Notes: generated by a model from the sequence alone, not told the origin. DNA of 64,000 bases from an uncultured Alphaproteobacteria bacterium (GCA_934234055.1 CAKQGY010000004.1:44631-108630); one strand, 5' to 3'; positions 17,841-38,181 are shown, counted from the first letter of the stretch. Numbers and translations are program-made.

Positions 17841-17872
17841 CTTCCCGCCTCCATTTCGCTTTTCTTAAAAAT

Positions 17873-17914
17873 AGGAAAATAATCCTTGACATTTGCTCCA
17901 AAATGTGATATAGT
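17873..17914 (+). promoter_or_regulatory. consensus extended -10 sigma70 promoter, copy A (tail-fibre locus)
   Basis: AGGAAAATAATCC-TTGACA (17886-17891), 17 nt ending in TGA, then TATAGT (17909-17914). 47 of 54 nt identical to copy B at 28989. Confidence 0.7.
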
Positions 17915-17973
17915 GTTTTTTGGTTAAAAGGCACCCGTGTATTTGTTGCGCGCGGTGTCTTTTGCTATGTGTG

Positions 17974-18001
17974 CCTTGACCGCCCGGTCGAGGTTTTTTT
18001 T
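17974..18001 (+). terminator. intrinsic terminator inside the leader of the tail-fibre operon
   Basis: CCTTGACC-gccc-GGTCGAGG (one G-U pair) followed by T8. Lies between the promoter and the RBS/GTG at 18026. Confidence 0.65.
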
Positions 18002-18025
18002 AATCCCAAAACAAAGGAAATTATC

Positions 18026-19051
18026 GTGTCTCAACACATTTCTATCAAAAGCATTCCGCCGCGAATTCGCTATGTTTCGGACGGTGTGCGCACCACTTAT
18101 ACTTTCCCGTTCGCGATTTTCAAGGCATCAGATCTGACCTTGTATCTGGACAGCACGGTGCAGCAGGCCGGCTCATTTTCGGTTGCCGGTGTCGGGGACA
18201 GCGACGGCGGGCAGATTACCCTGAGCCAACCGCCGGCTGCGGGTGTCATTATCACTTTGGCGCGCGAATTGACCATAGAACGCACCACCGACTTTCAAGA
18301 GGGGGGTGTGCTGCGTGCCGAGGCTTTGAATCACGAATTGGATTATCAAATTGCGTGTCAACAACAGATTGCCGACAGTCTTAATCGGTCTATGGTTTTA
18401 CCGCCTTATGTGACGGATACAGGCGTGAACCTGACGCTTCCGATACCCAGTGCCGGTAAAGCGATTGTCTGGAACAGCAACGGGACGAATCTGGAAAATT
18501 CAGCAGTTGCAGTTAACGCCCTAGAGTCCACTATTAAGGGGTATCGCGATGAAGCCAAAGGGGCAGCTGCCGTTTCGGCTGCCAAGGCCGACGAAGCCGC
18601 GCAGCAAGCCCAATCCGCCACAGCCTCTGCCGCTACGGCCACAGCCCAAGCGCAACTGGCCACCGGTAAAGCCACCGAAGCTGCCGGAAAGGCTGCCGAA
18701 GCCGCAGCAGTTTTATCTGTCAAAGCTGATGTCGGCCTGGGGAACTTGTCCCAATCCGGTAAAGCCGTTATTGCCGCACTGGGTGTGCCGGATTACAGTG
18801 CTGCCGAATCGCGCACCAAAGGCACCACTTACACCGCCGATCGTCCCGGTGTGCTCAAAGTCTATGTCTCGGGTGTTGGAGGCGAGGGCAAAACCGTCAT
18901 CAACGACATTGAATTTTTGAACAACGGCAACACGATGACGATGACATACCTGCTACCGGTTGCGACGGGCGATACTTATTCGTTTGTCGTGAACAGCGGT
19001 TATGGTTCTAATTTCAGTTTTATCCCGTATAAAGGAGTGTCCAATGATTAA
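18026..19051 (+). CDS. phage tail fibre protein
   Basis: N-terminus IRYVSDGVRTTYTFPFAIFKASDLTLYLD...TIERTTDFQEGGVLRAEALNHELD resembles podoviral fibre N-terminal domains. Ala/Gln-rich coiled coil in the middle, then a distinct C-terminal domain. GTG start after AAAGGA. The track start at 17969 lies inside the terminator. Confidence 0.65.
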   Translation: MSQHISIKSIPPRIRYVSDGVRTTYTFPFAIFKASDLTLYLDSTVQQAGSFSVAGVGDSDGGQITLSQPPAAGVIITLARELTIERTTDFQEGGVLRAEALNHELDYQIACQQQIADSLNRSMVLPPYVTDTGVNLTLPIPSAGKAIVWNSNGTNLENSAVAVNALESTIKGYRDEAKGAAAVSAAKADEAAQQAQSATASAATATAQAQLATGKATEAAGKAAEAAAVLSVKADVGLGNLSQSGKAVIAALGVPDYSAAESRTKGTTYTADRPGVLKVYVSGVGGEGKTVINDIEFLNNGNTMTMTYLLPVATGDTYSFVVNSGYGSNFSFIPYKGVSND

Positions 19052-19352
19052 ATACGCAAAAATAGAAAATGAAACAACGAAATCGTGCATTGTGGGCTTG
19101 GGCAATAACGCAGCCGCCTATCAGGCCCGTGGTATGACTTTGCAAGAGGTAGAGCAGGGCCCTGATGGGAACTGGTATTTGTCCGGATTTGCGCCCGTTG
19201 CCCCGACGCCCGATTATCAAGATTTGCGCCGTGCTGCCTATCCGGCGCTGACCGATCAACTGGATATGATCTATTGGGATCAAGTGAACGGCACGACGAT
19301 TTGGCGTGATACAATTGCCGGCATCAAAGCCGCATACCCCAAACCGGTCTAA
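19044..19352 (+). CDS. tail-fibre chaperone/assembly-like protein (hypothetical)
   Basis: 102 aa (MIKYAKIENETTKSCIVGL...YPALTDQLDMIYWD). ATG overlaps the fibre stop. Pattern resembles small phage fibre-assembly proteins. Confidence 0.45.
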   Translation: MIKYAKIENETTKSCIVGLGNNAAAYQARGMTLQEVEQGPDGNWYLSGFAPVAPTPDYQDLRRAAYPALTDQLDMIYWDQVNGTTIWRDTIAGIKAAYPKPV

Positions 19353-23800: not shown

Positions 23801-23961
23801 TTTTGTATCCTTCTTAAAATAATGTTAACATTTTGTAATTTATATGAGGTGTATTAACACCCTCACGAATTAAGACCTAGCACAACTTTTTGGGAAATGC
23901 AAGCACTATTTTACTATTTTTAACGATTTTTTCTTTTTTTTATAAATTTTGTCATAAATCC

Positions 23962-24311: not shown

Positions 24312-24369
24312 AGCATATTCCTTTCCACGATAAAAAGATAGCCCACTATACTCGATTTTTTCCCCGTTG

Positions 24370-25863: not shown

Positions 25864-26499
25864 CTATTGACTAACCCAGATCACGCGTGCCATCCACATG
25901 ACTTCCGGTGTGTCCAGTGCGATATCATCGCATGCCGGGTTTAAGGATTTCAGGATCACCTGCCGTGCCGATCGATGTTCTAATTCTTTAACCATCACTT
26001 CCCCCTTTCGGGTTTTCAGGACGATTCGATCTCCTTTGCGCACTTCCGCATCCGGCGAGACGACCAATTTATCCCCGTCGCGATAGGCAGGCTCCATACT
26101 GTTGCCCGACACTTCCAGGGCATACACCCGTTGTCCCAGATCAAAGGGGAATTCAATACCGTCCCAATCTTCACTGCCCAGCGGATAGCCGTTTGCATCA
26201 AAGTATCCGGCGCGTCCCGCTTTGGCCAAGCCCAACAGGGGGATGACATGCGGTTTTGGGCGATAGGGCTCTCCTGCCAGTTCCATAAATTCAAAGATTG
26301 TCGTATTTGTTGCATTCAGGATTTTATTCATACTTTCCGTCGAGGGCCAGCGTTTTCGCCCGTCCGCGCCGATTCGTTTGGATTTATTAAAGCTGGTTGC
26401 GTCCAAGCCGGCCTTGACTGCCAGCCCCGACAAGGACAACCCCTTGCTTTCCGCCAGGTTTTCAATTCCTTTCCATATTTCCGCATATGTCAGTTGCAT
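25864..26499 (-). CDS. XRE-HTH / S24 peptidase repressor (phage CI-like, LexA-type self-cleaving)
   Basis: 211 aa. N-terminal HTH (GLSLSGLAVKAGLDATSFNKSKR) and C-terminal S24 domain with GNSMEP catalytic Ser motif and a downstream Lys. Confidence 0.8.
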   Translation of the reverse strand: MQLTYAEIWKGIENLAESKGLSLSGLAVKAGLDATSFNKSKRIGADGRKRWPSTESMNKILNATNTTIFEFMELAGEPYRPKPHVIPLLGLAKAGRAGYFDANGYPLGSEDWDGIEFPFDLGQRVYALEVSGNSMEPAYRDGDKLVVSPDAEVRKGDRIVLKTRKGEVMVKELEHRSARQVILKSLNPACDDIALDTPEVMWMARVIWVSQ

Positions 26500-26787
26500 A
26501 ATGCCACTCCTTTTGTTTTTACACAGACCCGTTTCATCACTTTTTTCTTTCGGTATATTCCTATCCTTCGGGGGTGATATCCGCTTTTTATCCTAATTCC
26601 TTTTTACCACACCCACCCGTTTTCGTCAACATATTTTTCACACTTTCCCCACTTTTTTACTCCTTTTCCCCTCTTTTTGGCAAATATCCCCCGCTTTTTC
26701 TAAAATCCTCTTTTCTTATTCTCCCCACTCTCGTCATTTTATTATTATTTAACCATTCCACCCATCCGCCAATCACCTCACCCACCT

Positions 26788-26838
26788 GTCATTGCGATCC
26801 CCCTTGCGGGGCGTGGCAATCCACCCGGCACGAATGCA
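26788..26838 (+). repeat. hairpin repeat family copy
   Basis: GTCATTGCGATCCCCCTTGCGGGGCGTGGCAATCCACCCGGCAC, preceded by about 280 nt of pyrimidine-rich sequence. Confidence 0.6.
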
Positions 26839-26920
26839 ATGTATAGAATCACCCATCCCAGAACAAAAAAACTTGCAAAAAATCCGCAAATTGTTTAAAC
26901 TCAACATATCGGAGGTATAA

Positions 26921-27208
26921 ATGGCCCATAAGGAAAAACAGCCGCCCAAAAGTGATGCTTTAAGTATCCTGTATTTATTGCTAGGGATTCCATATGCTTT
27001 TATAATTGTCATGACCGGAATGTCAAGAGCTAAAACCCTTGATGATATATTTGGTTTATTGACCTTTTTTACGCCGGCGGTTTGCTTATGCCTTTTTGCT
27101 TTTTTCTCCGAAAGGACTTATACGCTGATTAAAGCCCTGTCTGTTATTTTTCTTGTAGTCATAGTAATTGTCTCAGGTGCCCATTTGACTTATTTTATTA
27201 CACACTAA
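26921..27208 (+). CDS. small hypothetical membrane protein
   Basis: 95 aa, 3 predicted TM segments, GGAGG RBS. AT-rich compared with its neighbours. Confidence 0.55.
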   Translation: MAHKEKQPPKSDALSILYLLLGIPYAFIIVMTGMSRAKTLDDIFGLLTFFTPAVCLCLFAFFSERTYTLIKALSVIFLVVIVIVSGAHLTYFITH

Positions 27209-27223
27209 GCGCAACTGCAACTT

Positions 27224-27272
27224 GTCATTGCGAGCCGGCTTGCCGGCGTGGAAATCCATTCAACAAGAAGTC
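27224..27272 (+). repeat. hairpin repeat family copy
   Basis: GTCATTGCGAGCCGGCTTGCCGGCGTGGAAATCCATTCAACAAGAAGTC. Confidence 0.65.
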
Positions 27273-27276
27273 AACT

Positions 27277-27325
27277 GTCATTCTGAGTGGGGCTTGTCCC
27301 CCGAAGAATCCACTAAACATTATAT
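27277..27325 (+). repeat. hairpin repeat family copy (ATTCT/AGAAT variant)
   Basis: GTCATTCTGAGTGGGGCTTGTCCCCCGAAGAATCCACTAAACATTATATC. Confidence 0.65.
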
Positions 27326-27330
27326 CCTTA

Positions 27331-27385
27331 TGCCATTGCGAGGGGCGCAGTGTGCCCCGTGGCAATCCACTGAACACTTAAATCA
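27331..27385 (+). repeat. hairpin repeat family copy
   Basis: TGCCATTGCGAGGGGCGCAGTGTGCCCCGTGGCAATCCACTGAACACTTAAATC. Confidence 0.65.
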
Positions 27386-27423
27386 ATATATTCTTGCACA
27401 CATTTTCCCCCAAAAAAAGAGTA

Positions 27424-27990
27424 GGCCGGCACACTCCGCACCGTCCCCACACCTCACCACCGGCCGGCACATTCTGCGCCGCCCGGCACACCCCACGCCG
27501 TCTCCGCACCACACCACACCTCACCACCGCCCGCCACACCCTGCACCGCTCCCCGCACCGCACCCCACCACCGACCAGCACATTCTGCGCCGCCCGGCAC
27601 ACCCCACGCCGACCTCTGCGCGCCACCGCCCCGGCTGCTGTCTCTCCTCTTTTTTTAAATTACCTCCACCGGCCCTTCCGCTCTCATTCCTTATCCTCGG
27701 CTTCCATTTTTTGGGAGGAGGGCGCCTCTATCCCCCCCCTCACACTCCTTTCTTATCCCTCGTCTTCTCGTCCCCACTGTTCCTCTCTGGCCAGCACACC
27801 CCTATCCATCTCCCGCGCCACACTTCACCACCGCCCGCCACACCCTGCGCCGTCCCCACACCGCACCCCACCACCGACCGCCACACCCTGCGCCGCTCCC
27901 CACACCGCACCCCACCACTGGCCGGCACATTCCGCGCCGTCCCCGCTCCCTACTTCGCCACACCGACCGACACATCTGCGCCGACCTCTC
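27424..27990 (+). repeat. C-rich degenerate tandem repeat tract (two arrays separated by a CT-rich spacer)
   Basis: Units of roughly 45-55 nt of the type CACCACCGCCCGCCACACCCTGCGCCG(Y)CCCCACACCGCACCC. An exact 34-nt direct repeat occurs at 27467-27500 and 27578-27611. A near-identical ~56-nt block occurs at 27521-27576 and ~27824-27878. Confidence 0.75.
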
Positions 27991-28228
27991 ATCGCCTCCT
28001 CGGTCGCCCCTTTGATCCCCGGCCCCGTGGCGCGCCTTTCGCCGCCTGAAATGCGGCCTTTGCCGGCCTCTCCCGCCCCTTCGATCTCCCCACTCTTTTT
28101 AGTTGTCTCGCCTATACCATATCCTTTTTGTCCTGTCAATAGGTTTTTTTTCTTATTTTTAGTCTTGACAATTCATTTTTTTTGATTTACTTCTATTTTT
28201 GTGTTTAATTTTAACGAAAGGATAGATT

Positions 28229-28597
28229 ATGAGGAATAAATACCAAACACAAACAGATACTCGCAAAACCGTGCCTTTTGAGACGCCCGAGGACGCCTGG
28301 TTCTGGTTTTGCCTGTGCGAACAATTGGGTCAAACGCGGGCTCGCGGTGGCGAGTCGCGAATCGCTCGCCCGTGCGAGTCGTCGGACATTATTATTGCCG
28401 TCAAGCGGTTGATGAATCAGGGGCTCTTAAAGGCCGAGCACATTCGGATTTTAGAGCACTACGGCTTTGACCAAGCCCCGCCTCATCCGAACTTCGGAGC
28501 CACCGCCCGCGTGTGTCGTCTGTGGCGCGAAGCCATGAGTTTTTTAGAGATGATTCTGCGCCGCAAAGGAATCGTCGCGTGCCTGTTATGTATATGA
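28229..28597 (+). CDS. hypothetical small protein, candidate regulator of the phage-like element
   Basis: 122 aa, AAGGA RBS. C-terminal part (LLKAEHIRILEHYGF) loosely resembles a sigma region-4/HTH segment. No family recognised with confidence. Confidence 0.5.
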   Translation: MRNKYQTQTDTRKTVPFETPEDAWFWFCLCEQLGQTRARGGESRIARPCESSDIIIAVKRLMNQGLLKAEHIRILEHYGFDQAPPHPNFGATARVCRLWREAMSFLEMILRRKGIVACLLCI

Positions 28598-28610: not shown

Positions 28611-28985
28611 ATGAAAGATTTAATTGCCACCGGCTATCGTTATCCGTATGCGTATGTTGCCTTTGGCGGCCGCCGCACGAAATGGTGGATGCGTTTTTTG
28701 AAAAGCGGCTTTTATCATTGCGCTTTGGTCTTGGGCAACGGGCGCGAGTGGGTGCTGATAGATCCGTTGATTCACTTCACGGATTTGATTGTGTTAAAGA
28801 ACGCCCCCGTGTGTGCCACCTTGCGTGCCCGGGGCTATCGTCTGGTGCGCACCACGCCCAAAGTGCCGCCCTTGTGCCACACGCCGTTCCGACCGCTCAC
28901 CTGCGTTGAAATCGTCAAGCGTTTTTTGGGTATTAACGCCCCGAAAATCTGGACTCCTTATCAACTTTTTAGATTTTTAACCTAA
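28611..28985 (+). CDS. hypothetical protein
   Basis: 124-aa ORF directly upstream of promoter copy B. No family recognised. Confidence 0.5.
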   Translation: MKDLIATGYRYPYAYVAFGGRRTKWWMRFLKSGFYHCALVLGNGREWVLIDPLIHFTDLIVLKNAPVCATLRARGYRLVRTTPKVPPLCHTPFRPLTCVEIVKRFLGINAPKIWTPYQLFRFLT

Positions 28986-28988
28986 AAA

Positions 28989-29030
28989 AGGAAAATAATC
29001 CTTGACATTCGCAAAAAAGTGTGATATAGT
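28989..29030 (+). promoter_or_regulatory. consensus extended -10 sigma70 promoter, copy B (portal operon)
   Basis: AGGAAAATAATCC-TTGACA (29002-29007), 17 nt ending in TGA, then TATAGT (29025-29030). 47 of 54 nt identical to copy A. Confidence 0.7.
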
Positions 29031-29037
29031 GATTTTT

Positions 29038-29073
29038 AGTTAGCGGCTGGGACTCTATCCGCTGACTTTTTTT
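29038..29073 (+). terminator. intrinsic terminator 1 in the portal-operon leader
   Basis: AGTTAGCGG, 12-nt loop, CCGCTGACT (9 bp, one G-U), running into T7. Confidence 0.6.
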
Positions 29074-29075
29074 AT

Positions 29076-29107
29076 CGGGTTAGCCCACCGGCCGACCCGT
29101 TTTTTTT
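29076..29107 (+). terminator. intrinsic terminator 2 in the portal-operon leader
   Basis: CGGGTTAGCC-cacc-GGCCGACCCG (10-position stem with one mismatch and one G-U) followed by T8. RBS AAGGAG and ATG at 29128 follow. Confidence 0.7.
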
Positions 29108-29127: not shown

Positions 29128-30594
29128 ATGACGGATATACAACATTTGTATCATCGTTTCCGACGTGCTCAGGCGATTCGTGCCGATTGGGAGCCCGTTT
29201 GGCAGTCGTGTTATGAATACGCCCTGCCGCATCGTGAAAGTATGTTCAACCCCACGCACACGCCGTTGGGTCATTTGTTTGACGGCACGGCGCCCGATGC
29301 CGTGGATCAGTTGGCCGCGCTTATGCTGTCCGAGCTCACGCCTCCCTGGCTGCGTTGGTTTCGCTTGACTGCCGGCACGGATTTGTCGGCCGATTCGGGC
29401 ACCCGCATTGCGCCGGATTTAGAGCACATTTCTCAGGTTGTTCAGACTCATTTTGACCGATCCAATTTCGCGTTAGAGGTGCACCAGTGTTATTTTGATC
29501 TGATTACAGCCGGCACGGCCTGCCTGTTGTTCGAGGAGGCTCCCGTCGGGTCATCTTCGGCGTTTCTGTTCACGGCGGTTCCGTTGTCTCAGGTTTATTT
29601 ATCCCAAGGTTCTTCCGGCCGCCTGGACACGACTTTCCGCCGGTGTTCACTGGATTTTGAGGCTTTTTGTGCCCGTTTTCCCGAGTTTCACTTGCCCGAT
29701 CGTCTTCCGCGCTCAGCCAACCCCGACGATGTCAAGCTGGACATTTTGGAGTCGGTCGCGCCGGCGCCGGGGGGTGGCTTTACCTACACGGCGTTTTTGA
29801 ATCCCGAGACTTTGCCGGATTTTCTGCCTCGCACGGATCTGTTGTTGCGCGAGTCGCATTATACGACATCGCCGTTCATTGCGTTTCGTTGGCTCAAAGC
29901 CCCGGGCGAGGTTTACGGTCGTTCGCCGGTGATGAAGGCACTGCCCGATATCAAGACCGCCAACAAAGTGGTTGAGTTGATTTTAAAGAACGCCTCTATT
30001 TCCGTCACGGGCATTTGGTTGGCCGAGGACGACGGCGTCTTGAATCCGGCGAACATACATTTGACTCCGGGCGCGATTATCCCCAAGGCCGTCGGTTCCA
30101 AGGGTCTCACGCCGCTGGAAGCCCCCGGCAAGTTTGATGTGTCCCAACTGGTGATAGAGGATTTGCGCAAGCGGATTCGCCACGCGCTATTGGGCGACAA
30201 ACTGGGCGAGGTCGCGACCCCCGCCATGACGGCGACCGAGGTCCTAGAGCGTTCTGACGAAATGATGCGCATATTGGGTGCGACATACGGCCGCCTGCAA
30301 ACCGAGCTGCTGACGCCGCTTTTGGCGCGTGCGGTTCAGATTTTGCGTCGTCGTGGTGAGATTCCCGAGGTGTATCTGGACGGCCGTCTGCTTGCCGTCG
30401 CGTATCAGTCTCCCCGCGCGGCCAAGCAAGGGCAGATTGACGCCAACAACGCGCTTTTGTGGCTGACGAATGTGGCCAAGCTCGGCGAGTCGGGCCTGTC
30501 GCAGATTGACATCGGCACATTTGTGCGGTGGCTGGGGGACAAGCTCGGCGTGCCTGATTCGGTTCTTTCCCCGCCGATGGGAGGGATTCAATGA
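29128..30594 (+). CDS. phage portal (head-tail connector) protein, podovirus type
   Basis: 488 aa, first gene of the operon. N-terminus LYHRFRRAQAIRADWEPVWQSCYEYALPHRE recalls T7-type connector proteins. Followed by scaffold-like and capsid genes. Confidence 0.6.
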   Translation: MTDIQHLYHRFRRAQAIRADWEPVWQSCYEYALPHRESMFNPTHTPLGHLFDGTAPDAVDQLAALMLSELTPPWLRWFRLTAGTDLSADSGTRIAPDLEHISQVVQTHFDRSNFALEVHQCYFDLITAGTACLLFEEAPVGSSSAFLFTAVPLSQVYLSQGSSGRLDTTFRRCSLDFEAFCARFPEFHLPDRLPRSANPDDVKLDILESVAPAPGGGFTYTAFLNPETLPDFLPRTDLLLRESHYTTSPFIAFRWLKAPGEVYGRSPVMKALPDIKTANKVVELILKNASISVTGIWLAEDDGVLNPANIHLTPGAIIPKAVGSKGLTPLEAPGKFDVSQLVIEDLRKRIRHALLGDKLGEVATPAMTATEVLERSDEMMRILGATYGRLQTELLTPLLARAVQILRRRGEIPEVYLDGRLLAVAYQSPRAAKQGQIDANNALLWLTNVAKLGESGLSQIDIGTFVRWLGDKLGVPDSVLSPPMGGIQ

Positions 30595-30797
30595 CCGCCG
30601 CCGCCTTTGCCCGCCTGTTTAACCGGCCCGAGGCCGCCGCGGTTTTATCCGCCCTCCGGCGCCTCACTCAGCAGCGTGTTTTGCCGCCCACCGCCTCCGA
30701 TCGCGAGGTTTGGTATCTGGAAGGCCAGCGCGCGCTTTTCGCAACCATTTTATCATTCATTCAACAAGGTCAACAACCCAAGGAGAAACAACCATGA
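30591..30797 (+). CDS. hypothetical phage protein
   Basis: 68 aa. ATGA overlap with the portal stop. Confidence 0.45.
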   Translation: MTAAAFARLFNRPEAAAVLSALRRLTQQRVLPPTASDREVWYLEGQRALFATILSFIQQGQQPKEKQP

Positions 30798-31489
30798 CCC
30801 AAACAAACCAACAACCGCAAACGCCGGCCGCCGTGCCGACATCTGACACACCCGTCCCGTCCAAGTTCCAAAATCCGGACGGCAGCCTCAATTCGGACGC
30901 GCTGTTAAAGTCCTATTTGGCGCTGGAAAAGAAGTTGGGCGATTCGGCCAAATCCCCGTCCGCTGCGGGATCGCGCCCGGACAAGCCGACCGATTACGAT
31001 ATCCGATTGTCCAGCGACCTGATGCATGTGGACGAATCGATCAACAAACGCCTGTTTGACCTTGGTTTCACCAACGCCCAGGCACAATTTGTCTATGACT
31101 TGGCGGCCGAGAAAGTCATTCCGCTGTTGCAAAATGTGATTCAGACATTCCAAACGGATCGTGCGTTATCGGATTTAGAGCAGTATTTCGGCGGAGCAGA
31201 TCGCTTCAACACGGTCGCGCGCCAGATTTCCGCCTGGGGAGAAAAGCACTTAAACCGCTCGGTTTTTGAAGCCCTTTCCGCCAGTAAGGACGGCATTCTC
31301 ACGCTTTACAAGATGATGACCGACGGGCGCGAGCCGGGCGTGCTGCCGCCCGCTGATTCGAGCGAACCGGCCGACACCGAAGAGTCTTTGAAACGCCTGA
31401 TGCAGGATCCCAAGTATTGGAAAAAGCAGGATCCCGATCTGGTGCGCCGCATAGAAAACGGGTTCAAGCGTCTCTATCCGGCTCAATAG
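30794..31489 (+). CDS. capsid scaffolding-like protein
   Basis: 231 aa from the ATG after AGGAGA. Gln/Pro-rich N-terminus, otherwise helical and charged. Position between portal and capsid as in T7 gp9. Confidence 0.45.
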   Translation: MTQTNQQPQTPAAVPTSDTPVPSKFQNPDGSLNSDALLKSYLALEKKLGDSAKSPSAAGSRPDKPTDYDIRLSSDLMHVDESINKRLFDLGFTNAQAQFVYDLAAEKVIPLLQNVIQTFQTDRALSDLEQYFGGADRFNTVARQISAWGEKHLNRSVFEALSASKDGILTLYKMMTDGREPGVLPPADSSEPADTEESLKRLMQDPKYWKKQDPDLVRRIENGFKRLYPAQ

Positions 31490-31639
31490 TTTCGGGCGGA
31501 TAACTCTTTCGAGCCCGCCTATGGGGCACCGTCCTCGTCGGGATTGTGCCTGTTTTGGGGATTCGTCCCCGCTTGTCGTGCGGCGACCTTTGGCCATAAC
31601 CGCCGACATTTTTTTTAACATTATGAAAGGAAAAAACTT

Positions 31640-32485
31640 ATGACAACAACAACGATTGATGCGTCATTCATCAAACATTTTGAAGCCGACGTGCACACCG
31701 CCTATCAGCAACAAGGCTCCAAACTCAAAAACACGGTCCGGTCCAAGACCAATGTCGCCGGTGCTTCCACGACTTTCCAAGTCATCGGCACCATGGCCGC
31801 CACGACCAAAACGCGTAATGCCCAGATTACTTCATCGGCTGTCACACACGCGCCGGTTGAATGCACACTGACGGATTATTATGCCGGCGAATGGGTGGAT
31901 CAGCTGGACGAATTAAAAGTCGGCCATGACGAGCGCAAAGCCCTGGCTTCGGCGGGTGCGTATGCCCTGGGGCGCAAGACGGACGACCTGATTATTGCCG
32001 CGCTCAACACGGCGACGCAAACGGCCGGCACCAAGGCCGAAGCGCTTACCAAAGACCGGATCTTACAGGCTTTCACGATCTTAAACGAAAACGATGTGCC
32101 AGACGACGGCGAACGGTATGCGCTGGTCGGACCGGATCAATGGAATCAACTGCTGTCTATTGAGGAGTTCTCGTCCGCCAACTATGTGGGCGATGCGTAT
32201 CCGATGCTGACCGGTTCCGAAAGTCGCAAGTGGATGGGGATTGTCTGGATTATGCACAATGCTTTGCCCAAGACAACCACAACCCACACTTGCTTTATTT
32301 ACCACAAATCCGCCGTCGGCCATGCTTCGGGTCAGGATATCCAAACCGATATCACCTGGCACGGCGACTATGCGGCTCACTTTGTCAATAATATGATGAG
32401 CCAAGGTGCCTGCCTCATAGATCCCAAGGGCGTCGTTAAAATGGAGTGCCTGGACACCCCGCCGACGACAACCGGCAACGGCTGA
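31640..32485 (+). CDS. major capsid protein
   Basis: 281 aa. N-terminus IDASFIKHFEADVHTAYQQQGSKLKNTVRSKTNVAGASTTFQVIG resembles P22-coat/HK97-fold podoviral capsids as I recall them. A strong terminator lies directly downstream. Confidence 0.6.
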   Translation: MTTTTIDASFIKHFEADVHTAYQQQGSKLKNTVRSKTNVAGASTTFQVIGTMAATTKTRNAQITSSAVTHAPVECTLTDYYAGEWVDQLDELKVGHDERKALASAGAYALGRKTDDLIIAALNTATQTAGTKAEALTKDRILQAFTILNENDVPDDGERYALVGPDQWNQLLSIEEFSSANYVGDAYPMLTGSESRKWMGIVWIMHNALPKTTTTHTCFIYHKSAVGHASGQDIQTDITWHGDYAAHFVNNMMSQGACLIDPKGVVKMECLDTPPTTTGNG

Positions 32486-32506
32486 TAGCAACCATGCAAC
32501 CACGGG

Positions 32507-32540
32507 GGAGGGGAGGGTTATCCTCTCCTCCTTTTTTTTT
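32507..32540 (+). terminator. intrinsic terminator directly after the capsid gene
   Basis: GGAGGGGAGG-gttat-CCTCTCCTCC followed by T9, 22 nt after the stop. Confidence 0.7.
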
Positions 32541-32557
32541 AACAGGAGTTTTTTGAT

Positions 32558-33127
32558 ATGACTTTTTCCGCAACAGATATTTGCTCGCATGCGCTGGTAA
32601 AATTGGGGGCCGGCACGATTTCGTCGTTTTCCGAGAACACGACCGGAGCCCGCATTGCCGAGCAACTTTACACCCCCACCACCGACGCGCTTTTGGCGTC
32701 TTATCCGTGGCGTTTTGCCTTGGCGCAAAGTGTGCTTGCGCGCCTGGCCGATACGCCGGCGTCCGATTATCGGTATGCGTATGCTCTGCCGGCGGATTGC
32801 CTGCGTGTGTTATCGGCCGGCACCGGCACGCACAGCCGCGGGCTCAACTACCGCTTGACCGGCCAGCAATTACACACTGACGCCGAGCAGGTCTTGCTGA
32901 CTTATATTTCCCGTCCGGCCGAGCGCCAATTCCCGGCCTTTTTCACCCAAGCCCTGACCGCCCAGCTGGCCGCCGAGTTTTGCCTGCCGCTGACCGAAAG
33001 CACGACCCGAACGGATTATTTGCGCAAGATTGCCACCGAGACGATTCAGCAAGCCCGCCTTGCCGACAGCCAGCAATCCGTTCCTTCGTCGTTTCAGGAT
33101 TTTTCATTGATTGAGGTGCGCCAATGA
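32558..33127 (+). CDS. tail tubular protein A / adaptor-like
   Basis: 189 aa. ICSHALVKLGAGTISSFSENTTGARIAEQLY...ASYPWRFA pattern. Size and position match T7 gp11-type proteins. Confidence 0.5.
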   Translation: MTFSATDICSHALVKLGAGTISSFSENTTGARIAEQLYTPTTDALLASYPWRFALAQSVLARLADTPASDYRYAYALPADCLRVLSAGTGTHSRGLNYRLTGQQLHTDAEQVLLTYISRPAERQFPAFFTQALTAQLAAEFCLPLTESTTRTDYLRKIATETIQQARLADSQQSVPSSFQDFSLIEVRQ

Positions 33128-35043
33128 CGAACCTGTTCACGACCAAGACAAATTTTTCCGCCGGAGCGCTTTCGCCGGATCTGCTGGGTCGCGTAGACCT
33201 CAAATCGTATGACAACGGCGCGCTGGTGCTTGAAAATGTGTTTATTCAACCAACTGGCGGGGTCTATCGGCGTTTCGGCACGCGCTACCTGGCGGATTTT
33301 GCGACTTCCGGCCGCCTGATTGCCTATACCAAAAGCGCGTCTGAATCCTATCTCATCGTGCTTCAAGATCAATCCGCCCGCATTTACCGCGACGGCGTAT
33401 TGCAAACCACGCTGGAAACCCCGTGGAGCGCGTCCCAAATAGCGTCGGTTTGTTGGTGCTCGGGGGGCGATGCGCTTTATTTCACGCACCCCGATGTCGC
33501 CCCGCAAAGGCTCACCGGCTCGGGCAACAGCTGGATCTTGTCCGCCTTTACTTTTTTGACCGAGGATCAGTGCCTGCGCCAGCCCTATCATCGATTTTCG
33601 GATGATTCCACGACTTTGTCCGCGTCGGCCGTCACGGGCAGTATTACGCTGACAGCCTCATCCGATGTGTTTTTGAATCGCCATATCGGCACGCCGTTCA
33701 AGGTTGCCGCGGGCTATGTCCAAATCACGGCGGTTGAATCGCCCCGTTCGGCCACCGCCACCGTGCTGAAAAAGCTGGTCGAGTCCGCCGGCGATACCGA
33801 CAGTCTTGCTCCGACGCGCAGTTGGGGCGAGCCGGCATTTTCCGCCGCATACGGTTGGCCGCGCACGGTTGCGTTTTATCAGTCGCGCCTGGTTTTCGGC
33901 GGTAGCAAAAGTCTCCCCAACCACCTGTGGTTCAGCCAATCCGGCGACCTCACGAACTTTGAGCTCGGCGACGGCTATGATTCCGAGGGGATTGAGTTTT
34001 CGCTGCTCTCTGATCAAGACAACACGATCTGTGCGTTATTTGCCGGCCGTCATTTACAGGTGTTCACCACGAATGCCGAGTGGATGGTTTCCGGCGATCC
34101 GCTGACGCCCACGAATATCCAGCTCAAACGCCAGACTCAGGTCGGTTCTCCCGCGGATCGTTTTGTGCCCCCCATCGGCATAGACGGCGCCACGATTTTC
34201 CCGGCTGCCAACGGGCGCGAGGTGCGCGAGTTCCTTTTTGCGGATATTGAGCAAGCCTACCAGGCCACCGACTTGTCATTATTGTCGTCGCACCTGATTG
34301 CCACGCCGGTGGATCAGGCGTATGACAAACATCATCGCCAAGCCTACCTTGTTATGGCCGACGGACGCCTGTGTGTGCTGACCAGTTTCCGAGCCGAGGA
34401 CATCCAAAGCTGGACCGACCAGACCACAGCCGGTGCGTTTTTATCCGTCGCCGTTGCGGGGGCTAAAACCTACCTGCTGGTGCGGCGCGGTGATCGGTAT
34501 TATTTAGAGGAGTTCACGCCGGATCTTCATACAGACTGCGGCTTTTTGCTGACGGCCGAAACCCCGACCACGACCTTTACGGGCCTGGCACCCTTAAACG
34601 GCCAAACGGTCAAGGTTCTTGCCGACGGCACGCCGATGCCCGACATGGTTGTCGCAAACGGACAAATCATACTTCCGTATGCGGCACGACGGGTTGAGGT
34701 GGGTCTTCCGTTCACACACGACATTACGCCCCTGCCGCCCGCCGTCGGAGCCAGCAACGGCGCCGCTCCCGTCTCGTCTGCGCGCTTGGTCAAAGCGGTG
34801 TTTCGCCTGATAGACACTTGTTCGTTTCAGGTCGACACCGGCACCGGTTTTCATCAAGAATTGGTGCCGACCTTGTCGGATTATCGGCTGGATACGCAAT
34901 TGCCCGCTCAAACGGCGGACATAGCCATACGATCGTTGGGGTGGCGAACGACACCCACGGCACCGTTATGGCACATTCGCGGGGATTTACCCCAATCATT
35001 CAAACTCGTCAGTGCCACCACTGACATACAAATCGGAGGATAA
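33124..35043 (+). CDS. tail tubular protein B / nozzle-like
   Basis: 639 aa. N-terminus NFSAGALSPDLLGRVDLKSYDNGALVLENVFIQPTGGVYRRFG. Position after the adaptor-like gene. ATGA coupling. Confidence 0.5.
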   Translation: MTNLFTTKTNFSAGALSPDLLGRVDLKSYDNGALVLENVFIQPTGGVYRRFGTRYLADFATSGRLIAYTKSASESYLIVLQDQSARIYRDGVLQTTLETPWSASQIASVCWCSGGDALYFTHPDVAPQRLTGSGNSWILSAFTFLTEDQCLRQPYHRFSDDSTTLSASAVTGSITLTASSDVFLNRHIGTPFKVAAGYVQITAVESPRSATATVLKKLVESAGDTDSLAPTRSWGEPAFSAAYGWPRTVAFYQSRLVFGGSKSLPNHLWFSQSGDLTNFELGDGYDSEGIEFSLLSDQDNTICALFAGRHLQVFTTNAEWMVSGDPLTPTNIQLKRQTQVGSPADRFVPPIGIDGATIFPAANGREVREFLFADIEQAYQATDLSLLSSHLIATPVDQAYDKHHRQAYLVMADGRLCVLTSFRAEDIQSWTDQTTAGAFLSVAVAGAKTYLLVRRGDRYYLEEFTPDLHTDCGFLLTAETPTTTFTGLAPLNGQTVKVLADGTPMPDMVVANGQIILPYAARRVEVGLPFTHDITPLPPAVGASNGAAPVSSARLVKAVFRLIDTCSFQVDTGTGFHQELVPTLSDYRLDTQLPAQTADIAIRSLGWRTTPTAPLWHIRGDLPQSFKLVSATTDIQIGG

Positions 35044-35044
35044 T

Positions 35045-35521
35045 ATGGAAGCTGCCCCAATCATCGCCGTTGCAGCAACGGCAACCGCTGCTTATTACAG
35101 CAAGAAGAATATGGATACCCAACGCAAGGAAGTCAAGGCCGCCCGTGCCGCCAATGCGCGCCAGTATGATCTGGACGCGGCTCAGGCCCGCCTGGCTCTT
35201 GAAGAGGAACAGCGCAAGAATCGCAATCTGCTGCGCCAACAACAATCCGCCTATCGGGCGCGATTGGGGGCGGGGGGAATGAGTGCGACTTCCGGCACCG
35301 GCCAAGCGGTTTTGGATTCGCTCCAAGCCGAGCACGATACCGAGGACAAGTATCTTGTCAATCAGGCCAACATCTCGCTGGAAGCGCTGCTCAACAGTGT
35401 GAATGCGCGCAACACGCAAAACCTGCTGTCGTTGTCGGCGTTGAATAATCGAACGAACGCCAACACCGCCTCGGCCATCAGCCGTATTTCCACATCGGCC
35501 GGCCGTTCGGTCTTAAAGTAA
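35045..35521 (+). CDS. internal virion / membrane-anchored coiled-coil protein
   Basis: 158 aa from the ATG after GGAGGA. N-terminal TM segment followed by a Gln/Arg-rich coiled coil. Confidence 0.4.
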   Translation: MEAAPIIAVAATATAAYYSKKNMDTQRKEVKAARAANARQYDLDAAQARLALEEEQRKNRNLLRQQQSAYRARLGAGGMSATSGTGQAVLDSLQAEHDTEDKYLVNQANISLEALLNSVNARNTQNLLSLSALNNRTNANTASAISRISTSAGRSVLK

Positions 35522-35534
35522 AGGAGAGCCCGCT

Positions 35535-35855
35535 ATGCCGGATCAGGAAGATACTTTTTCGGATTTGCGTGCCCCTTTAACCGAGGCTTTGCATCAGGCT
35601 TTGACTTCCTATCTGGCGTTTCGGGCAACCCCTGCGCCGCTGGATGATGCCAAAGCCTTTACCGCGCACCACAACGCGTGCAAGTCTGCTTTATTGCATA
35701 TGGCACTTTTGCTTAAACTGTCGTTGGCGTTGGATCGCCCGCGACAGGAAACAACGATGACTGATTGGCTGGATTTGGCCCGTCAGGCTCTTGAAAACGA
35801 GGATACAGATGACACAAACATCACATCGCCCGACACGCCGCTCGTCTTTGAGTGA
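35535..35855 (+). CDS. hypothetical protein (possible small terminase subunit)
   Basis: 106 aa, AGGAGA RBS. Its end overlaps the terminase large-subunit start. Assignment is by position only. Confidence 0.35.
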   Translation: MPDQEDTFSDLRAPLTEALHQALTSYLAFRATPAPLDDAKAFTAHHNACKSALLHMALLLKLSLALDRPRQETTMTDWLDLARQALENEDTDDTNITSPDTPLVFE

Positions 35856-37254
35856 GTTTGTCTGGATTTGGGATCGGACTCAGGGCTTGTCCATTCCCAA
35901 ACACCACCGCAAGATGATACGCTTTTTATCATTTTTGCAAGCCCCCGATTCGCCACGCAACGGGCTTTTAATGGCCTTTCGCAATTCCGGAAAATCGACA
36001 CTGGTGGGGTTATTTTGCGCGTGGCTTTTAACGCGCAACGCCAACACCCGTATTTTAATTTTATCGGCCGATTATGCGTTGGCCAAGAAAATGGTTCATC
36101 ACATTAAACAGGTGATAGAACACCACCCCCTGTGTGCGGGTCTCAAACCCCCGACACTGGAAGAGTGGGCTTCTGACCGTTTTACGGTGTGCCGCTCCAA
36201 ACACTTGCGCGATCCGTCTGTGTTGGCTCATGGCCTGATGGGGAATATAACGGGTTGCCGCGCCGATGTCATCATTTGCGATGATGTCGAGGTTCCCAAA
36301 ACCTGCGCCACCACGGCGCGCCGGGCGGATTTGCGGCAAAAATTGGGCGAGCTGGATTATATCCTGACCCCGGGCGGCATCTTTTTGTATGTCGGCACCC
36401 CGCATGCCTCGGATACGATTTACAATACCGAGGCCGGCGGATTTTTGGCCGATTGGCCGGTGCTGCGTGTGCCGCTGCTGACGGCCGACGGCACTTCGGC
36501 GTGGCCCGAACGGTTCAGTTTGGCGCGCATACAAAACCTGCGCCGCCGATCGGGCGCCACCCGATTTCGCAGCCAAATGCTGCTGGAACCAACGGCATGG
36601 ACCGCCTGTCGCCTGGATCCCGCCCGCCTGCATATCTATGACGGCGAGTTGAATTATCGCGAAGCCAACGGCCAAGGCATTTTAACCTTAAACGGCCGGC
36701 GATTGGTGAACGGGGCGTGTTGGTGGGATCCGGCGTTTGGGGCTCCCACCGGGGATCGCAGCGTCGTCGCCTGCGTCTTTTTTGACGAAGCCGGCAATGC
36801 CTATATCCACCGAGTGCAGTATTTAACCGTCCCGCCCGCGGCCGAGGCCACCGCCAGCCAATGTGCCCAGGTCGCGGGTCTGGTGGCGGAATGTTATATG
36901 CCCGCAGTGCATCTGGAAAGCAACGGCATCGGCAAGTTTTTGCCCGCCCTGTTGCGCCGGGAATTGACCCGCCGGCGGCTGCCCTGCACCGTGTTGGAAG
37001 AAACCAGCAGCCGCAGCAAAACCGAGCGTATTTTATCCGCCTGGGAGGCGCCGCTGATGAACGGGTCGCTGTTTATTCATCGCTCGATTCGGGAAACGCC
37101 GCTGTTGCGGGAAATGCAAGATTGGCGCCCGTTCGGCGACCGGGTCCACGATGACGGCCTGGACGCGGTGGCGGGTGCTTTGTTATCAACACCGGTGCGA
37201 CTGGGGCGTTTTCCGAACAGCACCCCGCAGGCACCGTTTTTATGGAGGATTTAA
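35809..37254 (+). CDS. terminase large subunit
   Basis: About 481 aa. Walker A FRNSGKST, Walker B DVIICDDVE, C-terminal nuclease-like half. ATG after GAGGA; the track start at 35791 is TTG. Confidence 0.75.
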   Translation: MTQTSHRPTRRSSLSEFVWIWDRTQGLSIPKHHRKMIRFLSFLQAPDSPRNGLLMAFRNSGKSTLVGLFCAWLLTRNANTRILILSADYALAKKMVHHIKQVIEHHPLCAGLKPPTLEEWASDRFTVCRSKHLRDPSVLAHGLMGNITGCRADVIICDDVEVPKTCATTARRADLRQKLGELDYILTPGGIFLYVGTPHASDTIYNTEAGGFLADWPVLRVPLLTADGTSAWPERFSLARIQNLRRRSGATRFRSQMLLEPTAWTACRLDPARLHIYDGELNYREANGQGILTLNGRRLVNGACWWDPAFGAPTGDRSVVACVFFDEAGNAYIHRVQYLTVPPAAEATASQCAQVAGLVAECYMPAVHLESNGIGKFLPALLRRELTRRRLPCTVLEETSSRSKTERILSAWEAPLMNGSLFIHRSIRETPLLREMQDWRPFGDRVHDDGLDAVAGALLSTPVRLGRFPNSTPQAPFLWRI

Positions 37255-37255
37255 G

Positions 37256-37666
37256 ATGGATACGGAAACAGATATTTTGGCGCGAACCCTGTATGGTGAA
37301 GCGCGCGGCGAGGGTCTGAAAGGGATAGAAGCCGTCGCCGCCGTTATTTTGAATCGGGTGCGGTATGCGGCCGCGGGCGGACCGCGCTGGTGGGGGCGCA
37401 CGGTGCGTGAAGTGTGCCTGAAACCTGCACAATTTTCGTGCTGGAACGCTGCGGATCCCAACCGGGTAAAATTGACGGGGGATTTGGCGGATGATCCGGT
37501 TTTTGCGATTTGTCGGCGGGTGGCGGTGCGCGCGATAAAAGGCATATTGCCGGATCCGACGCACGGCGCGACTCACTATCATGCGTTGTCGGTCAATCCG
37601 CGGTGGGCATCGGCTCTGATCCCGACGGCGCAAATCGGAAACCACTTGTTTTACACGTGTTTATAG
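37256..37666 (+). CDS. cell-wall hydrolase, SleB/CwlJ (Hydrolase_2) type endolysin
   Basis: LARTLYGEARGEGLKGIEAVAAVILNRV...QFSCWN...THYH motifs. GGAGGA RBS right after the terminase stop. Confidence 0.8.
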   Translation: MDTETDILARTLYGEARGEGLKGIEAVAAVILNRVRYAAAGGPRWWGRTVREVCLKPAQFSCWNAADPNRVKLTGDLADDPVFAICRRVAVRAIKGILPDPTHGATHYHALSVNPRWASALIPTAQIGNHLFYTCL

Positions 37667-37675
37667 GAGGAAAAT

Positions 37676-37981
37676 ATGGCAACACTGACCATAGAAATCG
37701 GTAAATTGATGGCGCAGGTGGAGACCCTGCAAAAGCAGTTGACCGAAATTAAAAAAGAAATCGGGCAGACAAAAAATCAGGTCGCCGATGTGCATAACGA
37801 ACTGTTGAATTTTATGACAACCGTTCAAACGAAAACCGCTTGCCAAGGTCTGCACGATAAGTTGGCGGCGGCGTATGTGCCTCGGGCCGAGATTGCGCCG
37901 TTAAAAACCGTGGCGGGGATGGTGGCACTGACCACCGTGACCGCGATCGGGGCGGCGTTTTTTAACCTCATCTTGAAATGA
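37676..37981 (+). CDS. coiled-coil protein with C-terminal TM segment (holin/spanin-like)
   Basis: 101 aa, AGGAGG RBS. C-terminus VAGMVALTTVTAIGAAFFNLILK. Confidence 0.45.
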   Translation: MATLTIEIGKLMAQVETLQKQLTEIKKEIGQTKNQVADVHNELLNFMTTVQTKTACQGLHDKLAAAYVPRAEIAPLKTVAGMVALTTVTAIGAAFFNLILK

Positions 37982-37995
37982 AAGGAGAAAATCAG

Positions 37996-38181
37996 ATGAT
38001 GACATTTATTATGACTTATTGGAATGAAATGCTGATTGCCGTATCGGGGATTATCAGCGGCGCCAGCGCGTTGGCCGCCTTGACGCCCACGCCGCGTGAT
38101 GATGCGTTTTGGTCCAAAATTAAAAAAGCCGTTGACTTGGTGGCCCTGAATGTCGGGTATGCCAAGCCGGCAACGGCCTAG
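37996..38181 (+). CDS. small phage membrane protein (holin-like)
   Basis: 61 aa. TM segment then TPTPRDDAFWSKIKKAVDLVALNVGYAK, a motif seen in small phage membrane proteins. Confidence 0.45.
   Translation: MMTFIMTYWNEMLIAVSGIISGASALAALTPTPRDDAFWSKIKKAVDLVALNVGYAKPATA

Follow-up and report, generated by a model that had tools for sequence, protein, structure and literature searches.

A 54-nt block that occurs twice, 11 kb apart, in the chromosome of an uncultured Alphaproteobacteria bacterium is best explained, from its sequence and surroundings, as the promoter and initially transcribed region of a "late" control module that is used twice in this genome, once in front of a phage-type tail-fibre gene (copy A) and once in front of a T7-like structural and lysis cluster (copy B). 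The most likely mechanism of control, which we hold to be moderately probable, is antitermination by a factor encoded by the element itself, for which the small protein p122 is the better candidate. If this is true, the block identifies the regulon of a hitherto undescribed particle system of phage origin, which extends from uncultured gut and rumen Alphaproteobacteria to cultured Acetobacteraceae, and the coordination of GTAs by antitermination extends to a podovirus-type element with a factor family that is unnamed in databases. The window referred to throughout is the whole stretch of 64,000 nt that was analyzed (GCA_934234055.1, CAKQGY010000004.1:44631-108630).

The repeated block and the two loci it heads

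A first-pass annotation of the window had aligned positions 17873-17926 and 28989-29042 by eye and counted 47 identities in 54 positions without gaps, a figure that is borne out by direct comparison. All the sub-blocks named at that time are present, i.e., AGGAAAATAATCC, TTGACA, a 17-nt spacer ending in TGTGA, TATAGT and GTG/GAT-TTTTT-G/A-GTTA, and both copies are indeed sigma70-type extended -10 promoters, each with an 11/12 match to the consensus and with the TG present. The flanks of the two copies are at chance level (36/100 identities in the 100 nt on the left, 22/100 in the 100 nt on the right), and the best score among 2,000,000 random pairs of 54-mers drawn from the window is 33/54. 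Sub-patterns of 18 and 23 nt taken from the block are found at no sites other than these two even when 3 mismatches are allowed, against 0.02 and 0.00 expected in the window. The absence of a third strong copy from the window was likewise confirmed by a module model built from 29 non-redundant modules, which scores 73.5 and 72.2 bits at the two copies, and by mismatch searches, which agree; with filters off, the next match of the model reaches 16.8 bits (E = 3e-4) at 23878-23922 on the minus strand. This site is a degenerate look-alike located upstream of a pilin-like ORF. The tRNA, SRP-RNA and rpmJ promoters of the window do not carry the block, so that the possibility of a generic housekeeping promoter, raised in the same annotation, fails there. 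The two copies are composed as follows.

17868..17885, plus strand: copy A, A-tract and GGAAAATAATCC (from the sequence and the module alignment)
17886..17914, plus strand: copy A, core promoter, TTGACA, 17 nt, TGTGATATAGT; 11/12 match, TG present
28983..29001, plus strand: copy B, A-tract and GGAAAATAATCC, approximately -53 to -36, a UP-like element or an imperfect dyad near -41.5; near-invariant in relatives retrieved by protein
29002..29030, plus strand: copy B, core promoter, TTGACA, 17-nt spacer with TGTG, extended -10 TATAGT; 11/12 match, TG present

The genes around the two copies are those of a phage particle and of a small early region.

18026..19352, plus strand: tail-fibre gene, 341 aa, with an overlapping 102-aa phage-type ORF (19044-19352)
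25864..26499, minus strand: S24 (LexA/CI-type) autocleavable repressor-like gene (rep), always divergent from p122
28117..28228, no strand: ancestral divergent control region with a rep-type promoter, the p122 promoter and a degenerate box
28229..28597, plus strand: p122, small helical protein of 122 aa, the first of two genes that always lie just upstream of the portal-type late promoter
28611..28985, plus strand: p124, small protein of 124 aa, ending 4 nt before copy B
29128..38181, plus strand: T7-like structural and lysis cluster headed by copy B
32504..32543, plus strand: internal intrinsic terminator between the capsid and gp11-like genes, 14-bp stem followed by U9

The tail-fibre gene itself (18026-19051) carries a T7 tail-fibre N-terminal domain (PHROG tail protein, 5e-21). 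The cluster behind copy B encodes, in this order, a portal protein (PF12236, 1e-120), a Bbp19-like protein, a scaffold, the capsid, gp11-like, gp12-like and gp14-like proteins, a small ORF, TerL, a hydrolase, and ORFs of 101 and 61 aa; the gp11- and gp12-like products are tail tube proteins, the hydrolase is a cell-wall hydrolase, and the small ORF before TerL is possibly TerS. Core proteins of the gp15/gp16 type appear to be absent from the cluster, which is consistent with a reduced particle and by itself settles nothing. Between the two loci lie rpsU, an RHH gene, lon, the pilin-like ORF, rpmJ, lnt and then the S24 repressor-like gene. Since the particle cluster and the fibre gene each stand behind a copy of the block with host genes in between, the block links parts of one phage-derived particle system. 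These structural, packaging and lysis genes lie in a chromosome, and no integrase or replication genes occur within 10 kb of them in 9 lineages; judging from this gene content, we read the element as chromosomally fixed, T7-like and phage-derived, either GTA-like or a defective podovirus. A host polysaccharide gene cluster is found upstream of copy A.

Related contigs were retrieved through p122 and are hence unbiased toward the motif. The species recovered in this way (53-73% protein identity) share a common layout, with the S24 gene on the minus strand followed by p122, p124, an intergenic region and the cluster from the portal gene to the lysis gene. In diverged species, the same 10-kb cluster sits beside differing host genes, and none of these clusters holds an integrase, replication or fibre gene; the synteny with lnt and rpmJ is kept in the window and in three relatives (L011, L057 and L058), and other clades show other flanks. 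The suggestion of the first-pass annotation that the block is a shared regulatory unit is upheld, as the whole module is found at both locus types in approximately 35 species-level lineages of uncultured gut and rumen Alphaproteobacteria; among 61 related loci, every portal-type and fibre-type locus reaches 58-82 bits with the module model, and no other locus does. A search for the exact 21-mer AGGAAAATAATCCTTGACATT, which covers the upstream half of the module, gave matches in 36 stretches from species-representative genomes, in 29 from metagenomes and in 4 viral contigs. By blastx, 15 + 13 of these loci have the arrangement rep, p122, p124, motif and portal, and 5 + 2 carry the motif 130-180 nt upstream of a fibre homologue. 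Fibre homologues stand behind the module in L017, L018, L042, L046, L049, L068 and L079, and the MAG CB4 bin31 has one fibre-type and one portal-type copy on different contigs. At a third type of locus (L045), the genes downstream of the module have no PHROG match.

Cultured relatives share the layout of early genes, promoter and terminator. In Siccirubricoccus sp. G192, the S24 gene and genes for p122-like and p124-like proteins are followed by a 79-aa ORF and by portal, scaffold, capsid, gp11, gp12 and gp14-like genes, with a 760-aa pectate-lyase-like fibre gene inside the cluster; a TTGACT promoter, a G+C hairpin and a T-run precede the structural genes, and the 54-nt block is absent. This layout without the block indicates that the logic of early genes, promoter, leader terminator and late genes predates the block and is more widespread; a fibre locus that stands apart with a module of its own would then have arisen secondarily in the gut and rumen lineage.

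Conserved positions and leader terminators

Alignment of the modules places GGAAAATAATCC at approximately -47 to -36, behind the A-tract, and defines the core promoter across species as TTGACA, a 17-nt A-rich spacer and T-R-T-G-n-T-A-T-A-n-T, with T-R-T-G-n-T-A-T invariant across the 29 modules. The upstream part, AAAAAAGGAAAATAATCCTTGACATT, is invariant or nearly so in the species retrieved by protein, the exceptions being one change just 3′ of the -35 in L058 and the variant GGAAAATTTTCC in L056 and L059, both of which were retrieved by protein and not by motif; this variant is a perfect palindrome by virtue of an AA>TT change. The dyad character (GGA-N6-TCC) that the first-pass annotation ascribed to this region is thus real, but it is imperfect in the window, where 4/6 positions pair. 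Readings of the motifs as DnaA-box, IHF, Fur or CtrA sites were dropped because the matches were poor.

Conservation had also been said to extend beyond the hexamers, and it does: downstream of the promoter, GTTA and TnTATC are kept at both locus types. Transcription likely starts at the purine (A/G) of (C)AGTTA, a position predicted near G17922 in copy A and A29038 in copy B. Counted from there, positions +6 to +15 vary freely between the -10 and TnTATC, and TnTATC itself has a fixed register in 26 modules (+17 to +22, i.e., 22-23 nt past the -10), with no wider variation in length; its equivalents in the window are the heptamers GTGTATT (17937-17943, copy A) and CTCTATC (29053-29059, copy B). 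From the aligned sequences, the specific part of the module is its downstream half, with GTTA and TnTATC in fixed register followed by terminators. A conserved NANNNT pause element of the -10-like kind was not found across the aligned modules: TnTATC has the invariant A, in most species TATCYN has no T at the sixth position of the hexamer, and hexamers of the GATTTT type just 3′ of the -10 occur in some species only.

Both window copies have leaders in which one or two intrinsic terminators stand ahead of the first gene, a feature that is absent from the first-pass annotation.

17921..17967, plus strand: copy A leader, hairpin 1, from the predicted +1 near G17922 (leader fold)
17973..18002, plus strand: copy A leader, intrinsic terminator, 9-bp stem followed by U8 (fold); precedes the RBS and the GTG start at 18026
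29038..29073, plus strand: copy B leader, hairpin 1 from A29038, in which AGTTAGCGG pairs with CCGCTGACT, followed by U7 (fold)
29076..29107, plus strand: copy B leader, terminator 2, G+C-rich hairpin followed by U8; precedes the RBS and the portal start at 29128

The presence of leader terminators behind both promoters points to antitermination rather than to a simple operator. The copy A leader folds with -39.3 kcal/mol (z = -4.6 against shuffled sequences), and the copy B leader has z = -3.0. Across species, one to three intrinsic terminators precede the RBS in essentially every leader, and a strict test for a hairpin and a U-run is passed by 36 of the 38 leaders. The two leaders that fail it (L019 and L064) were read by eye as near-misses. 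The terminator behind the capsid gene is kept in L011 and L014 as a feature and not as a sequence. This terminator could alternatively just set the ratio of the capsid to the downstream proteins.

The RNA structure differs between the two types of leaders. In most fibre-type leaders the heptamer forms the loop of a hairpin whose stem covaries (CGGTA/TACCG, GCGCT/AGCGT, GCACTG/CGGTGC). Portal-type leaders have a long-range helix that encloses the terminator, formed by their 5′ end with the U-tract and the sequence behind the terminator (e.g., GTTAACAG/CTGTTAAC, AGTT.GCA/TGC.AACT and AACCTAGAA/TTCTAGGTT). RNAalifold returned no consensus structure from the MAFFT alignment of the portal-type leaders, in which the 3′ strands were misaligned, and it was replaced by a comparison of cognate and non-cognate duplex energies, a weaker test, in which the means for portal-type leaders were -9.6 and -6.6 kcal/mol, respectively. 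Rfam has no match in the leaders of the window. In both window copies the heptamer is base-paired and not looped, so that what stays constant is its sequence and the register it keeps with the promoter. Such constancy argues for a role of the heptamer in the DNA or in the transcription complex, with or instead of a role as an RNA loop.

Early genes and a candidate antitermination mechanism

The first-pass annotation had proposed the products of rep, p122 and p124 for binding assays on the block, and all three are indeed conserved neighbours that would be expected to act on it. In 17 species, back-to-back TTGACA promoters lie between the S24 gene and p122; in the window, the rep-type promoter is found on the minus strand (TGTCAATAGG, 28134-28143) and the p122 promoter has its TTGACA at 28165. 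The -10/+1 region of the p122 promoter is covered by a GTTC-N7-GTTC direct repeat, which we take to be the SOS (LexA) box of Alphaproteobacteria and which is intact in 17 related species and in Siccirubricoccus; the box is degenerate in the window (ACTTC-N7-GTGTT, 28189-28205). A C-rich repeat of 1.6 kb is inserted between rep and the ancestral rep promoter in the window.

Of the two early proteins, p122 is the likelier factor, as a candidate antiterminator or activator. Its structure is modeled as a small helical protein (pLDDT 83.5). It has no match in Pfam, NCBIfam or PHROG, 10 distant relatives are likewise blank in Pfam, and a Foldseek search of BFVD gave nothing significant. The best fold matches in the PDB are Q21 chains, which are not significant (Foldseek E of ~2, TM 0.3-0.4), and neither p122 nor p124 has significant sequence or fold similarity to the Q-lambda, Q82 and Q21 families. 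A PDB profile search with p122 yielded nothing beyond a chance match to aldehyde oxidase. Homologues were at first pass confined to uncultured Alphaproteobacteria; an exhaustive profile search extends the family to 604 representatives at E<=1e-3 and at least 1,562 clusters at 90% identity, and it reaches the cultured Acetobacteraceae Roseomonas, Siccirubricoccus and Roseococcus. The model of p124 (pLDDT 87) gives weak matches to permuted papain-like cysteine peptidases, and its invariant residues are H36/C37 and C98.

A near-optimal promoter, leader terminators, an internal terminator, small genes just upstream and transcribed bases in fixed register together form the signature of late-gene antitermination. 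From this signature we infer constitutive firing, antitermination, the identity of the factor and SOS control, with the transcription start and the termination sites as predictions. The promoter, near the sigma70 optimum by its UP-like A/T element, TTGACA, 17-bp spacer and extended -10, would fire unaided, and its transcripts would end within approximately 35-85 nt at one or two leader terminators. Derepression of the early operon p122-p124, which in relatives lies behind the SOS-type GTTC-N7-GTTC box and beside the S24 repressor, would then supply a product, more likely p122, that renders RNA polymerase coming from the late promoter resistant to termination. The loading signal would consist of GTTA (+2 to +5) and TnTATC (+17 to +22), possibly together with the dyad at -41.5, and both loci, including the genes past the post-capsid terminator, would then be expressed together. 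Since the 21-mer serves as a half-promoter in taxa without p122 (see below), the upstream half need not be a site for the factor. The dyad, at -47 to -36, lies further upstream than known Q-binding elements, which counts against antitermination. The module is compact (~150 nt) and has mutable parts (the dyad, the motifs in fixed register and the tandem terminators) as well as two candidate proteins, which makes it testable by reporters.

The closest parallels are found in lambdoid phages and in GTAs. The PR′-tR′-Q units of lambda, 82 and 21 share with the module a strong sigma70 promoter with one or more intrinsic terminators close by (here at the level of the sequence), a regulator gene directly upstream of the promoter (here the candidates p122 and p124), conservation over the promoter and the first ~20 transcribed bases, and late structural and lysis genes downstream with further terminators within the operon. 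Unlike in these units, there is here no Q-family protein match and no conserved NANNNT pause element, the dyad lies upstream of the -35 instead of within or downstream of the promoter, and the module stands at two chromosomal loci. Judged by sequence, the promoter and the terminators agree with a Q-type unit and the proteins match no Q family; the module is not filed as a Q unit.

Antitermination has been shown in two GTAs of Alphaproteobacteria, which provides a precedent for reading the module in this way. In BaGTA of Bartonella, a leader terminator attenuates output from the constitutive promoter P_bgtA-K (TTGACA-N17-TATCAT), release comes from the Q21-like protein BrrG, a processive antiterminator encoded by the element, and antitermination integrates separate loci (10.1101/2024.11.20.624540). 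Like the element described here, BaGTA is an alphaproteobacterial domesticated phage element with a near-consensus TTGACA-N17 promoter and a leader terminator. However, its leader measures ~860 nt and has a demonstrated -10-like element, against ~90-110 nt here, BrrG is Q21-like by structure, against a factor that is here only a candidate, and its particle genes have another phage origin, against a T7-like particle here. In CcGTA of Caulobacter, GafY and IHF activate the cluster, and GafZ loads at a promoter palindrome and bypasses the terminators of the cluster (PMC11150451). The likeness consists of a two-tier regulation, accessory GTA loci elsewhere that are co-regulated, a promoter palindrome and cluster terminators that are bypassed, as is predicted here. 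On the other hand, the -35 of the CcGTA promoter is poor and GafY and IHF are required there, whereas the promoter of the module is near-consensus; the searches described above brought up no homology to GafY or GafZ; the GafZ site lies between the -35 and the -10, whereas the dyad lies upstream; and the CcGTA structural genes are of the RcGTA-like siphovirus type, whereas those described here are T7-like.

FpGTA of Faecalibacterium is presented as the first podovirus-like GTA-like element and has two operons (PMC12946183). It shares with the element described here a host from the gut, a ~10-kb operon of the short-tailed type with terminase, portal, scaffold and capsid genes, and a second, separate locus, which in FpGTA carries fibre and lysis genes; it differs in that its host is a Firmicute, its proteins are unrelated and its packaging of host DNA has been shown, whereas the present element is known from its genes alone. 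It was also the only podovirus-like GTA-like element found in the literature, in which no T7-like GTA of Alphaproteobacteria was found, and a literature search with the 12-mer GGAAAATAATCC gave one irrelevant match. On present comparison, the kind of control is known, and the element, the particular features of the module and the family of the candidate factor appear new. A bolder proposal, which we put forward tentatively and consider rather doubtful as a whole, is that the members of the p122 family are processive antiterminators that load at promoters and form a new class, without sequence relationship to Q, BrrG and GafZ; they would control a widespread, SOS-triggered GTA of T7-like podovirus origin, with the 54-nt block as their loading site in the gut and rumen lineage.

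The upstream half-promoter and alternative readings

The upstream half of the module has a distribution of its own. The exact 21-mer also heads approximately 14 loci in Hyphomicrobiales/"Afipia" MAGs, where it precedes a conserved, G+C-rich, highly structured noncoding region of ~450 nt that is found on two different contigs in three MAGs and has no match in Rfam. Other occurrences head a BlaI-like operon in two Firmicutes and lie on three unrelated phage contigs and at several single loci. At nearly all of these unrelated loci a -10-like hexamer can be read from the sequence 17 bp further on, and blastx detected none of p122, p124 and the portal protein nearby. The occurrences are far above chance, with fewer than one expected per collection by our own estimate. 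The half-promoter resembles the UP element of rrnB P1 (AGAAAATTATTTT) and the SELEX-derived UP consensus (GGAAAATTTT...), and a looser pattern of an A-tract, ~3 nt and TTGACA is found at the tRNA and rpmJ promoters of the window and at the rep promoter of the element. Its A/T-rich composition and its position directly upstream of the -35 fit those of UP elements such as that of rrnB P1, which lie at approximately -38 to -59 and work with RNA polymerase alone; however, UP elements are usually conserved in composition and not base by base, whereas the G/C arms described here do not vary and a palindromic form occurs.

Because the 21-mer stands at promoters of taxa without p122 and p124, it is explained at least as well by contacts with RNA polymerase as by an operator, and we consider it more likely, on the sequences compared, that the upstream half is a generic, strong UP-like/-35 half-promoter rather than a private operator. 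The proposal of the first-pass annotation that the block is a shared operator or factor-loading site is therefore retained in part: the unit is shared, but its half made up of GGA-N6-TCC and the -35 is not private to the regulon. The invariant G/C arms, the palindromic variant and the centre at -41.5 keep an operator standing as an explanation that is no longer required.

Such an operator would act at initiation, with a dimeric protein bound to the dyad near -41.5 switching both promoters and with the terminators only trimming leakage or ending the upstream operon; we consider this unlikely. The protein would be p122 as an activator, or the S24 protein as a repressor or CI-like activator, and the centre of the dyad would suit either kind of activator, -41.5 being the class II position and that of lambda CI at PRM. 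An activator is nevertheless unneeded at a core promoter that is already near-consensus, and the exact dyad with its -35 occurs at many promoters of organisms that lack these proteins. The dyad with its invariant G/C arms and the natural palindrome GGAAAATTTTCC are what an operator would lead one to expect, although the A-to-T swaps that create the palindrome would be equally neutral for a UP element. Additional hints come from the rep promoter, which resembles the late block, and from L014, in which GGATTATGTTCC lies over the -10 of the p122 promoter and is identical at 11/12 positions to the reverse complement of the dyad. Control at initiation leaves unexplained the one to three terminators present in essentially every leader at both loci, as well as the elements of the transcribed region that stand in fixed register.

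It is quite improbable that no dedicated factor acts on the block and that it is simply a strong promoter of a generic kind, which the fibre gene took along in copy on leaving the cluster and which polymerase contacts and descent have conserved, with any regulation coming from RNA structure itself or from global factors. Its downstream half, which is unneeded for promoter strength, is kept at two locus types only, and lysis and capsid genes driven by a strong promoter that is neither regulated nor blocked would kill the cell; the terminators would provide the block, and a release mechanism would then be needed. A generic promoter does account for the finding that unrelated taxa and phages have the 21-mer at sigma70-type promoters whose -10 lies 17 bp away, for its resemblance to the UP elements named above (rrnB P1, SELEX) and for the A-tract, ~3 nt and TTGACA of other strong promoters in the window, and the fibre gene still inside the cluster in Siccirubricoccus agrees with its later departure.

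Very improbable, finally, is a role of the RNA alone, either as a functional small RNA of ~35-85 nt ending at the terminators or as a leader acting in cis like the put RNA of HK022: the hairpin that starts at +1, the covarying stems, the long-range helix and the z-scores of -4.6 and -3.0 would suit it, but the heptamer is paired in both window copies instead of looped, no complement of the heptamer occurs in or near the element in 19 species, there is neither an Rfam match nor an RNAalifold consensus structure, and a leader that antiterminated itself in the manner of put would leave the terminators without a purpose and make expression constitutive. Why one exact 21-nt half-promoter recurs in bacteria and phages so distant from one another is a separate puzzle, of promoter optima or of promoter mobility.

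The T7-like cluster and its cultured relative

The T7-like cluster behind copy B of the promoter block (portal-to-lysis genes, 29128-38181) codes for a capsid protein of 281 aa and a gp12-like protein of 639 aa, and apparently contains neither large internal core proteins of the gp15/gp16 type nor polymerase genes. We read this gene content as consistent with a reduced, non-replicating particle. The same type of element is found in a cultured Acetobacteraceae strain, Siccirubricoccus sp. G192 (L089, JAHREN010000001.1:1946182-1966616), in which a fibre or spike gene lies within the cluster; this strain is a possible experimental model.

The region upstream of copy B

Across the -10/+1 segment of the promoter of p122, the first of two small genes preceding copy B, 17 related species and Siccirubricoccus carry GTTC-N7-GTTC, the pattern of alphaproteobacterial SOS boxes. 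The window copy is degenerate (ACTTC-N7-GTGTT, 28189-28205). The divergent, repressor-like S24 gene is cut off from its ancestral promoter by a C-rich, repetitive noncoding insertion of ~1.5 kb with a GC skew of -0.34. Assemblies may break in this repeat, since several metagenome contigs of the window species begin upstream of p122 by no more than a few hundred bases.

Features upstream of copy B
26600-28110: C-rich insertion
26921-27208: 95-aa membrane ORF within the insertion
27426-27520 and 27826-27944: tandem units of 44 nt and 14-19 nt within the insertion
28189-28205: box region at the p122 promoter (in related loci, L011:9940-9960, L014:9950-9975 and, in Siccirubricoccus, L089:9945-9970)

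The second small gene, p124 (28611-28985), codes for a product with invariant His36/Cys37 and Cys98. Permuted papain-like cysteine peptidases (3kw0, YiiX) came up as weak fold matches of this product. An enzyme is surprising at this position, where one would expect a regulator.

Promoter-type sites compared with the block

Two further promoter-type sites of the window bear comparison with the block.

23878-23922 (-): degenerate look-alike, AGTAAAATAGTGC-TTGCAT-17-TAGGTC (16.8 bits, E=3e-4)
24345-24373 (-): rpmJ (L36) promoter, TTGACA-17-TATAGT preceded by AAAAAAGCC

The latter shows that promoters combining an A-tract and TTGACA with TATAGT are typical of this genome. The former, perhaps a weak member of the regulon or else a match by chance, stands upstream of an ORF for a 136-aa type IV pilin-like protein (23390-23800, -), the product of which varies from 133 to 145 aa among contigs of the window species.

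Related modules in other genomes

A third type of locus (L045:660-3200), in another uncultured alphaproteobacterial MAG, has the module at its head, at 38 bits and together with a GTTAAAAG hairpin and U8. Downstream lie genes for small membrane proteins of 57, 64 and 194 aa and for a 365-aa protein, all four products without a PHROG match; it possibly represents a lysis or accessory locus in its own right.

In Hyphomicrobiales ('Afipia') MAGs, the exact 21-mer of the upstream promoter half is followed by a conserved, G+C-rich and strongly structured noncoding region of ~450 nt, which matches no Rfam family and could represent a large RNA not described before or the leader of a mobile element. 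Three of these MAGs carry it on two separate contigs each.

Loci with the 21-mer and the ~450-nt region
L022, L026, L030, L034 (example, 1403-1900), L038, L039, L043, L048, L051, L071, L075, L078, L085
L081: diverged form
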